The notes under the pieces were generated by a model. That model saw only the letters and a list, made by a program, of their open reading frames with translations. It had not been told where the DNA came from and searched no databases. This document shows positions 26,443-27,151 of a stretch of DNA of 64,000 nucleotides, in pieces; position 1 is the first letter of the stretch; every line of letters starts with the position of its first letter. The DNA comes from an uncultured Lachnospiraceae bacterium (lineage in GTDB: Bacteria; Bacillota; Clostridia; Lachnospirales; Lachnospiraceae), in the NCBI GenBank assembly GCA_910583895.1, contig CAJTYJ010000018.1:251-64250 (forward strand). The letters run 5' to 3'. Both the position numbers and the translations under genes were made by a program.

Positions 26443-26899
26443 CGGTTGCCTCCTTATTAATAGTTCCGCTTGCCCCTCCCATCACCCGGGGAGGAGATGG
26501 CTTCTCGTCTGCTTTCGCAGCCGCTCACCCATCTGGGCGCTGTACGGGGCGGCGCTGTGAAAATAGTTCCGCGCCCCTCTTGCTTTGTTTTTTTTGATTT
26601 GGAAGTGCGCCTGCTTTTCCCGCCGAAAAAACGGGGAGAGTCCTTGAGAAAAAGGATCCTGCAGAGGACCTTTGCCTGAATATAATGCGGTCAGTACACC
26701 AGTACCAAGGCATCGGCTGTCATTCGGATCGTTTCTTCGGTATCCGGACGATCTGCTGCCTTTTTCCGGCTGAAAACTTTAAAGGTACTGGCTTTTGGTC
26801 TGATTTCGGACCAGAAAGCGTTCCCGTTCAAAGTCTTCCGGGAAAAGCAGAAAACGCGGTTCTTCCGCTTTTGAGCTGCATGGACTGTGCAGTCGTTGC

Positions 26900-26967
26900 A
26901 ATGATCGCTTTACCACTTAGCAAACTGTTTCCCTAAAACAGTGGAGGATTCGAACCTCCGAATCATC
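26900..26967 (-). ncRNA. Circularly permuted tRNA-like module (T-arm / closed acceptor helix / D-arm)
   Basis: The minus strand reads GATGA-TTC-GGAGG-TTCGAAT-CCTCC-ACTGTTT-TAGGG-AAACAGT-T-TGCT-AAGTGGTAA-AGCG-A-TCATT. Equivalents of the canonical G53/T54-T55-C56/A58/C61, U8, A14, G18-G19 and A21 are present. There is no anticodon loop and no CCA end. Confidence 0.5.
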
Positions 26968-27106
26968 ATAATACACCTCTCTACCACTTCCGGCATACCA
27001 TCCGTTCAGAGACGGCGGCACCGCCCAGACCCGGTTTTACGGAAATCTGCGGCTTTTGGAAGCTGGTATGCATTTATCATACTCCCTCTTAAGGAAAACA
27101 TCATTT

Positions 27107-27151
27107 AAAAAAAGGTGCGAACTTCCTGTATCTGCCAGAAAGTCTCACACC
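27107..27151 (-). terminator. Rho-independent terminator of the MATE gene
   Basis: On the minus strand: GGTGTGAGACTTTC-tggcagatacag-GAAGTTCGCACC followed by T7. It begins 20 nt after the stop codon. Confidence 0.7.

Follow-up and report, generated by a model that had tools for sequence, protein, structure and literature searches.

A structured gap between a MatE gene and an SPFH gene

We analyzed a DNA stretch of 64,000 nt from an uncultured Lachnospiraceae bacterium (contig CAJTYJ010000018.1 of assembly GCA_910583895.1), which is referred to here as the window and whose positions serve as coordinates throughout. On its minus strand, a gap of 729 nt runs from the stop codon of a MatE transporter gene (27172) to the ATG start codon of a gene for a protein of the SPFH (Band-7) family (26442), and an AraC regulator gene and a GH2 beta-galactosidase gene come after the SPFH gene. 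The gap holds a conserved, covarying RNA structure of about 470 nt (27071-26600, minus strand) that includes a circularly permuted tRNA-like module. All features of the RNA described below lie on the minus strand and are read 5' to 3', that is, from higher to lower coordinates.

The gap lacks a recognizable protein gene, as an earlier note on this DNA had stated, and its open reading frames (ORFs) are all short, 45-62 aa on the strand of the RNA. Folding of the whole gap gave z = -7.2 relative to shuffled sequences for the minus strand and z = -3.6 for the plus strand. The exact SPFH protein is present on 23 contigs from metagenomes or metagenome-assembled genomes, each with a near-identical upstream gap, and when different species are compared, conservation of the gap takes the form of compensatory base changes. 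ARAGORN found no tRNA or tmRNA in the whole window, and a scan of the whole window against Rfam 15 (4227 families, gathering thresholds) gave no match. In other loci, public gene calls place ORFs of 30-148 aa without a Pfam match over the conserved RNA or over the repeats described below (L013/L014, 2542-2988; L001, 3141-3233; L011, 2125-2238 and 2762-2989). These ORFs, called on top of the RNA, are probably annotation artefacts.

A tRNA-like module with an open anticodon side and a closed acceptor stem

The circularly permuted tRNA-like module occupies 26969-26901 and was identified from its sequence, from a covariance model (R1), from covariation, from an ARAGORN call on its un-permuted form and from a partial match to the YrlA family. 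It begins with an anticodon-stem strand (ATGAT, 26969-26965) and a variable loop of 5 nt (26964-26960), and continues with a T arm (26959-26943) whose stem (26959-26955/26947-26943) is capped by the loop UUCGAAU (26954-26948). A 7-bp acceptor-like stem follows (26942-26936 paired with 26930-26924), closed by the loop UAGGG (26935-26931), and then U8-N9 (26923-26922), a D arm (26921-26907; stem GCUA/AAGC at 26921-26918/26910-26907, loop at 26917-26911 with A14, G18 G19 and A21), N26 (26906) and the second anticodon-stem strand (ATCAT, 26905-26901). The module thus has every tRNA element but the anticodon loop, in permuted order, as if a tRNA had been cut open where its anticodon loop would be and sealed at its acceptor end.

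In its native order, the module has no cloverleaf with an open acceptor end and an anticodon loop, and it yields neither an ARAGORN call nor a match to the Rfam tRNA model. When it was un-permuted in silico, by opening the acceptor ends and adding any 7-nt anticodon loop, ARAGORN called a 75-nt tRNA. With R1, the module scores 68.5 bits (E ~1e-23) and is the sole match in the window, a match far beyond chance. The minus-strand letters quoted by the earlier note for 26967 to 26900 agree exactly with the window sequence, and the permuted topology that it had read from them (T arm, closed acceptor-like stem-loop, D arm and elbow residues) stands on the sequence, the covariation and the un-permuted ARAGORN call, while two of its helices had to be moved. 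Its closing stem GATGA/TCATT was off register, and the true pairing of ATGAT with ATCAT yields canonical tRNA geometry, with 1 nt at position 26 and a 5-nt variable loop. Its D stem TGCT/AGCG was slightly off register as well, the true stem being GCUA/AAGC, preceded by U8-N9.

Homologues and covariation of the module

A DNA pattern scan with one genome per species (T loop, 17-28 nt, then the 5' part of the D arm as GCU + AGYGGU) yielded 119 loci, which split cleanly into ordinary tandem-tRNA junctions and 'hairpin-type' modules. R1, which was built from 38 modules, scores the hairpin-type modules at 59-77 bits (52 including that of the window, and so 51 other loci) and the tandem-tRNA junctions at 20-54 bits. 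The module loci span Lachnospiraceae, Mollicutes, Bacteroidota and Campylobacterota.

In the alignment of the 52 sequences, the T stem is 99.6% paired with three covarying pairs, the acceptor-like stem is 93% paired with covariation at five of its five modelled pairs, and the 13-22 pair of the D stem covaries (UA 19, AU 16). The overall covariation score is 0.588 as compared to 0.162 in shuffles, with none of 500 shuffles reaching it. As the covariance-model realignment left the closing stem off by 1 nt (64% paired), its registers were scored directly. When a variable loop of 4 or 5 nt is allowed, 45 of the 51 distinct sequences have a perfect 5-bp closing helix, and the stem occurs in 12 sequence variants. 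Homologues and covariation, which the earlier note had proposed to look for in relatives, were thus both found, in 51 other loci and in all four helices.

Several loci carry further tRNA-like elements. A second perfect T arm (GGUUCRAAUCC) lies 60-75 nt after the first in L019, L051, L096, L122, L087, L094, L103, L119, L136 and L144, and a complete second permuted module, with T arm, hairpin and D arm, is seen in Bacteroidota loci; R1 reports no second module copies at E <= 1. The RNA family may have been built from tandem tRNA elbows. Hairpin-type junctions between a T arm and a D arm were also seen on phage contigs (L146, L148, L157, L160, L167, L172, L174, L177, L184 and L186). The viral-contig scan placed an RtcB homologue beside one of these modules (L148) and SPFH beside none. 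YrlA-like RNAs have been reported in phages, with which the modules on viral contigs agree.

The module lies within a larger RNA (about 470 nt)

The anticodon-stem strands of the module continue into a conserved 5' domain on one side and a conserved 3' domain on the other. SPFH homologues of 84-58% identity all have a large upstream gap, which shares 70-79% nucleotide identity with that of the window over about 570 nt, and this level of identity holds between species whose SPFH proteins are 80% identical.

For the 3' domain (26900-26600), RNAalifold on 12 species gave 55 pairs, 42 of them with compensatory changes. In this consensus, 87.9% of the cells are paired as compared to 73.5% after shuffling, and the 42 pairs with double changes compare to 20.5 +/- 2.7 in shuffled alignments, none of 500 of which reached 42. 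Every slid register scored much worse. The domain opens with a hairpin, CUGCA/UGCAG with a 7-nt loop (26892-26888/26880-26876), at a place where some relatives have a true T arm. Its principal long-range helices are CUGCUUUUCCC/GGGAAAAGCAG (26850-26840/26621-26611) and GCCGGAAAAAGG/CCCCGUUUUUUCGGC (26770-26759/26636-26622), and it contains two conserved unpaired motifs, GGAUACCG (26745-26738) and GACAGC (26721-26716). The first of these motifs is found 195-293 nt past the T arm in Lachnospiraceae, Mollicutes and one Bacteroidia locus, that is, at a similar distance in three phyla.

Several local structures that had been proposed for the gap are read differently here. The mutually exclusive local pairings CGGAT/ATCCG and GATCGT/ACGATC give way to the long-range helices, which the consensus has in their place. 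The hairpin at 26792-26818 lies in an insert that varies between species (about 26830-26775), and the GC-rich stem at 26546-26577 belongs to a repeat unit (see below) that follows the RNA.

The 5' domain (27071-26970) was defined from alignments, an invariant helix, a covarying hairpin and an outer duplex that was compared to shuffles. RNAalifold on a 26-species MAFFT alignment of this domain recovered the GUGCC/GGUAU helix only, because hairpin lengths differ among the species, and per-sequence folds were used instead. The outer closing duplex, GCUUCC/GGAAGU (27063-27058/26991-26986), is stronger than in shuffles in most species. Within it lie hairpin A (about 27053-27023) and the helix GUGCCG/UGGUAU (27021-27016/27000-26995), which as GUGCC(G)/(C)GGUAU, with two G.U pairs, is invariant in 26 species. 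This helix encloses hairpin B, CCGU/ACGG (27015-27012/27005-27002), whose stem covaries. A D-loop-like GGAAGUGGUAGAG is found at 26991-26979. The helix GCATACCA/TGGTATGC, around which the flank had previously been drawn, competes with the GUGCC/GGUAU, hairpin and outer-duplex pairings; in the alignments inspected it has no counterpart beyond the clade of the window, and GGUAU pairs instead with the invariant GUGCC.

Linkage to SPFH and RtcB genes

Gene linkage was counted where a high-scoring module was followed by at least 900 nt of sequence, which left 43 modules. In 42 of them, an SPFH homologue (31-84% identity) lies downstream on the same strand, at a median distance of 355 nt, and among the loci found by the DNA pattern alone, a same-strand SPFH gene is downstream in 34 of 35. 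RtcB is adjacent in 18 loci, in 13 of them upstream on the same strand and in five, which belong to Bacteroidota, downstream of SPFH. The earlier note had listed an orphan RNA as one possibility, which does not survive these counts, as the same RNA precedes SPFH in nearly all of the loci and RtcB adjoins it in many relatives.

In the lineage of the window, MatE takes the position that RtcB holds in relatives. Homologue searches over the 64 kb found no RtcB, RtcA or Ro60, in agreement with the earlier statement that no rsr/Ro60, rtcB or related gene lies in the window, and rtcB has been lost or moved in this clade. The outer neighbors vary as well: MatE, RtcB or WYL upstream, and AraC, LRR, NUDIX, HTH or ferredoxin downstream. 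In C. symbiosum (L025/L026, 890-2134, minus strand), a divergent WYL-domain gene (PF13280) lies upstream of the promoter block and the RNA, and none adjoins the unit of the window. WYL proteins are nucleic-acid-sensing regulators, and because they sense nucleic acids, this WYL protein is a candidate regulator of the RNA unit. In Psychroserpens (L094, 4291-4362, minus strand), a Flavo-1 RNA (RF01705, 54 bits relative to a gathering threshold of 42) lies between the SPFH and RtcB-like genes, on the strand opposite to them; Flavo-1 was not seen in the other Bacteroidota loci scanned.

A promoter-like block and a repeat-bearing spacer

Upstream of the RNA lies a conserved promoter-like or operator block, TTCGCACCTTTTTTTAAATGAT (27121-27100), which has a single exact match in the window and was found in 27 loci. 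Its consensus is TTCGCA-N2-3-T5-7-N-AAATGA, followed 18-19 nt on by a TAnnAT hexamer in all aligned loci. In the window, this hexamer is the putative -10 box TATGAT (27081-27076), which would place the transcription start at about 27071-27068. The block lies upstream of rtcB where rtcB is present, so that rtcB stands between the block and the RNA, and directly upstream of the RNA where rtcB is absent, as in the window and in C. symbiosum. The ancestral unit would therefore have consisted of promoter, (rtcB), RNA and SPFH.

The same region had been described as the terminator of the MATE gene. A hairpin at 27152-27107 is indeed seen in the fold, and its 3' arm and tail are formed by the 5' part and the U-run of the promoter-like block, which belongs to the RNA unit. 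We considered the first conserved hairpin as a MatE terminator only and rejected this reading, as the same block is found upstream of rtcB and upstream of the RNA in loci without MatE. A sigma-54 promoter was also rejected, since by eye the GG/GC spacing is wrong. The block is unlike a sigma-70 -35 region and may serve as an operator, or as a promoter for an alternative sigma factor dedicated to the RNA unit.

No convincing intrinsic terminator was found between the RNA and the Shine-Dalgarno sequence (SD) of the SPFH gene, AAGGAGG (26455-26449). The spacer between them holds, in the window, one 103-nt repeat unit (26572-26470) bounded by GCGGAACTATT at 26572-26562 and 26469-26459, the last of these boundary repeats abutting the SD. 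Copies of this unit number two in L006 and L007 (same species), 2.6 in L015, at least five in L011 (where the assembly contains Ns) and none in L013 and L017. In a different Lachnospiraceae lineage (L051, 3365-3853), the same spacer carries an unrelated 54-nt tandem repeat with 9.1 copies and 95% matches, and spacer repeat arrays seem to have arisen more than once.

The SPFH protein

The SPFH/Band-7 gene (26442-25324) encodes 372 aa and was assigned from Pfam, its translation, an AlphaFold2 model and matches in the PDB. Pfam recognizes Band_7 (PF01145, 88 bits) in residues 138-309 only. In the AlphaFold2 model (mean pLDDT of 82), a beta-rich domain at the N-terminus (1-135), modelled with confidence, is followed by the SPFH domain and by a long helix (283-346), so that a long C-terminal helix follows the Band_7 domain as in the SPFH family. 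By sequence, its PDB relatives are stomatin, QmcA and HflK. With Foldseek, cage-forming SPFH proteins align over 223-272 columns, the fold matches including stomatin, HflK/C, prohibitin, erlin and flotillin, while the major vault protein (MVP) aligns over 415-433 columns, that is, over the whole query including the N-terminal domain (E 2e-8 to 6e-7). No hydrophobic or membrane segment was evident on inspection of the translation, without use of a transmembrane predictor, and no NfeD-type gene is called beside the SPFH gene. As judged from the model, the protein appears to be stomatin-like and soluble, given the lack of an evident membrane segment, with an MVP-like domain order. Two SPFH clusters, P0015 (460 aa) and P0035 (453 aa), exceed the 372-aa protein in length by about 80-90 aa.

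Relation to a predicted Band-7-associated RNA

The neighborhood described here is not without precedent. [quoted passage not shown] An SPFH gene is also found inside the rtc locus of P. aeruginosa (2026 paper, PMC13086221). The linkage of SPFH/Band-7, RtcB and a tRNA-like RNA is reproduced here, a tRNA-like RNA adjoining a Band-7/SPFH gene in the window and in the same 42 linked modules. The RNA described here differs from the b7a-tRNA, as far as the latter is portrayed in that summary, in being permuted, in having no anticodon loop, in receiving no call from tRNA finders and in forming one domain of an RNA of about 470 nt.

Neither the permuted topology nor the large covarying RNA is described in the literature that we searched, in which the 2016 definition of the b7a-tRNA was represented by its summary, and Rfam 15 has no model for the RNA. 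Of the full texts searched, the 2018 preprint alone mentions the b7a-tRNA. The association is thus known as a prediction, and the RNA is a larger, multi-domain class, absent from Rfam, that belongs functionally with the predicted Band-7/RtcB tRNA-like RNA. Apparently ordinary tRNA genes lie 180-430 nt upstream of the module on the same strand in two Bacteroidota loci (L046, 3471-3545; L087, 3784-3868; Lys-UUU and Tyr-GUA). These tRNAs might be the 'b7a-tRNA', or might be unrelated neighbors.

What the RNA may do

We consider it probable that the RNA of the gap is the cognate non-coding RNA of the SPFH protein, and that the two belong to an SPFH branch of RtcB-centered RNA-repair systems. That it is a real RNA of the SPFH/RtcB system can be held with high confidence, whereas a trans-acting scaffold mechanism is put forward more tentatively, at somewhat less than an even chance, by analogy with YrlA. 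As rtcB is no longer adjacent in the clade of the window, the RNA-SPFH pair is taken as the conserved core.

In the mechanism that we propose, the RNA would be transcribed together with SPFH (and with rtcB where present) and would then work in trans as the partner in a ribonucleoprotein (RNP), as YrlA does for Ro60. With its intact elbow and an anticodon stem ending in two free strands, the module would mimic a tRNA with a break in its anticodon loop, and such a tRNA is what an RtcB-type ligase would be expected to act on after attack by an anticodon nuclease. As its shape is that of an anticodon-cleaved tRNA, its likeliest role would be that of a tRNA-shaped handle, which would dock factors that recognize tRNA (RtcB and perhaps also RNase P or modification enzymes) onto a soluble SPFH oligomer, to which the large 5' and 3' domains would bind. 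Alternatively, the module may titrate such factors, keeping them inactive until genuine damaged tRNAs compete.

Several points weigh against this interpretation and should be considered together. An RtcB-centered mechanism cannot be local in the clade of the window, where rtcB is absent from the locus and from the 64 kb. The trans-acting RNP role is proposed purely by analogy, oligomerization and RNA binding of the SPFH protein are both predictions, and the TM-scores of the fold match to MVP are low (0.38-0.45). The topology of the 5' domain is only partly resolved, as its invariant GUGCC/GGUAU helix gives no covariation signal and the clade of the window has an alternative, GCAUACC/GGUAUGC. 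Finally, a cis-acting leader explains the linkage equally well, the RNA being always directly upstream of SPFH with no convincing terminator in between.

This last alternative is the main rival, and we regard it as unlikely. The RNA would be a purely cis-acting SPFH mRNA leader, or an intercistronic region after rtcB, that controls translation or stability, or else a tRNA-like processing signal that is cut by RNase P at the 7-bp stem and so separates the rtcB and SPFH messages. A long structured SPFH leader, which the earlier note had listed, is physically probable: besides its constant strand and position and the lack of a convincing terminator, the SD of the window lies within about 150 nt of the structure, and the copy-variable repeats near the SD could tune translation. 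A processing signal has a parallel in the YrlA of M. smegmatis, whose acceptor-like stem is likewise 7 bp long and which RNase P cuts (PMC4201824). Against a purely cis-acting role, a covarying multi-domain structure of this length, with invariant unpaired motifs, far exceeds what a processing site or a typical attenuator needs, there is no match to a ligand-type or T-box family, and in genome context the module and YrlA, an RNP RNA that acts in trans, can replace one another. Furthermore, between the end of the conserved structure and the SD lie about 150 nt in the window and up to about 1 kb in L011 and L051, and because this spacer length varies, even between strains, direct gating of the SD by the structure is disfavored.

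Comparison with known RNA classes

The closest known RNA is YrlA (RF02553), the top Rfam match, and the RNA shares with it a permuted tRNA-like domain with conserved elbow residues (T arm, closed acceptor-like stem-loop, D arm and variable region), a frequent location in RtcB operons and a proposed role as cofactor of a ring- or cage-like scaffold protein. Could the RNA simply be an ordinary YrlA, with a Ro60 (Rsr) partner encoded elsewhere in the genome? We consider this very improbable. The order of the arms is the same, and R1 also recovers modules beside Ro60/TROVE: modules with intermediate scores (46-54 bits) in L088, L091 and L115 adjoin Ro60/TROVE and RtcB (and RtcA), which are canonical YrlA contexts, and the sole high-scoring module without SPFH (L032) adjoins a Ro60 homologue. 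The YrlA match itself, however, reaches 22.4 bits as compared to a gathering threshold of 69 (E = 0.048, 26887-26979), its cmscan alignment being confined to the T arm, the D arm and the closed acceptor-like stem between them, with the terminal-stem positions deleted, and the 18 related loci gave no YrlA match at gathering thresholds.

YrlA is defined by a Ro-binding motif, GNCGAA(N0-1)G, near the 5' end in the stem formed by the 5' and 3' ends, by adjacency to rsr and by a length of 80-130 nt (PMC4201824). By inspection, neither the GNCGAA(N)G motif nor a 5'/3' terminal stem is among the conserved alignment blocks, and the earlier failure to find a convincing Ro-binding helix in the flanks is thus extended to the alignments. 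In addition, tblastn with three Rsr proteins gave no match in the window or in the SPFH-linked loci, and Ro60 and SPFH never occur together in those examined. The RNA is also 4-5 times longer than Y RNAs, with extra conserved domains, and its partner is SPFH. The description 'Y-RNA-like tRNA mimic' therefore holds for the topology and for the top Rfam match, whereas membership in YrlA fails on score, Ro60, motif and length.

The hairpin GGUCCGAAAUCAGACC (26818-26800) in the species-variable insert holds GGUCCGA, the only such copy in the window, a motif that Xenopus Ro60 contacts. As a Ro-binding motif, this copy (~26813) was rejected, since it lies in a non-conserved insert and so is probably coincidental. 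In L032 (Chitinophagaceae; 859-1472 and 1896-3413), three modules in a row (68, 46 and 40 bits) accompany the Ro60 homologue, with no SPFH in 8 kb. This locus is an apparent hybrid of the Ro60 and SPFH systems.

Even less probable is a divergent member of a known large ornate class (ROOL, GOLLD, OLE or raiA). The length of about 0.5 kb, the many helices, the tRNA link and the Clostridia/Lachnospiraceae hosts do resemble ROOL and GOLLD, which the earlier note had brought up, and like ROOL, GOLLD and OLE this is a conserved, covarying Firmicutes RNA. OLE is dedicated to OapA, and the RNA described here likewise appears to be dedicated to a protein partner. Its association with SPFH/RtcB, however, differs from that of all four classes, and it contains a complete permuted tRNA. 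No Rfam 15 model of such a class matches at gathering thresholds in the whole window or in 18 related loci, the latter giving, for the modules themselves, only weak tRNA matches in Bacteroidota, and a permissive scan (E <= 10) of 26300-27300 found no ROOL, GOLLD, OLE, raiA or tmRNA. The RNA is thus large and structured, as had been suggested, without being ROOL or GOLLD.

If the module were a tRNA gene that had decayed or been rearranged, the junction of a mobile element or a tRNA-like sequence that arose by chance, it would, like any broken tRNA, escape ARAGORN and the Rfam tRNA model. Yet the chance of such an origin is negligible and the tRNA relic or recombination scar of the earlier note is refuted, since each of the four helices is preserved by compensatory changes across 51 distinct sequences of several phyla, the flanks are themselves conserved and covarying, SPFH synteny is kept while outer neighbors change, and ARAGORN finds no intact tRNA at the module position in any Lachnospiraceae relative.

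Permuted tRNA genes (for example in Cyanidioschyzon merolae) and tmRNA also have permuted halves, or a T arm and acceptor inside a larger RNA. Unlike the module described here, the former give rise to functional tRNAs that have an anticodon loop, and tmRNA has an aminoacylatable open acceptor end and no such D arm.

The eukaryotic vault, which consists of MVP, vault RNA and TEP1 with its TROVE domain, by which TEP1 binds vault RNA, offers a more distant comparison. The SPFH protein aligns over its whole length to MVP (a beta-rich repeat-like domain, an SPFH-like shoulder and a long helix), each has a link to a structured non-coding RNA of small or medium size, and a TROVE protein is employed by the sister system of bacteria. 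Vault RNAs are not known to contain a permuted tRNA, and, aside from the low TM-scores, the sequence similarity of the SPFH protein is to stomatin and not to MVP, and a cage or an enclosure of RNA is hypothetical here. It is nonetheless conceivable, if doubtful, that the soluble SPFH protein and its RNA assemble in bacteria into an RNP cage like the vault, in which the 5' and 3' domains would bind the shell, the permuted tRNA would mimic an anticodon-cleaved tRNA and recruit or regulate RtcB and other tRNA-handling enzymes, and the copy-variable repeats would tune stoichiometry. Ro60-YrlA and SPFH-RNA would then be the prokaryotic counterparts of the vault modules TROVE and MVP shoulder, respectively.

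Significance

The RNA would be a new addition to the classes of large structured RNA in bacteria, one that covariation defines, that is present in several phyla and that Rfam lacks, and such classes are rare. To our knowledge, its module is the cleanest case of a tRNA permuted to imitate one with a broken anticodon loop. With the covariance-model seed and the conserved promoter block, the RNA could be annotated in hundreds of gut Lachnospiraceae genomes; gene callers now put spurious ORFs on top of it. For the soluble SPFH proteins of rtc-type loci, the RNA would offer a concrete partner, and it makes directly testable what bacterial RtcB systems and the Ro60 and SPFH 'scaffolds' recognize, which is a long-open question. 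It may also give a prokaryotic handle on the vault/Ro RNP problem.

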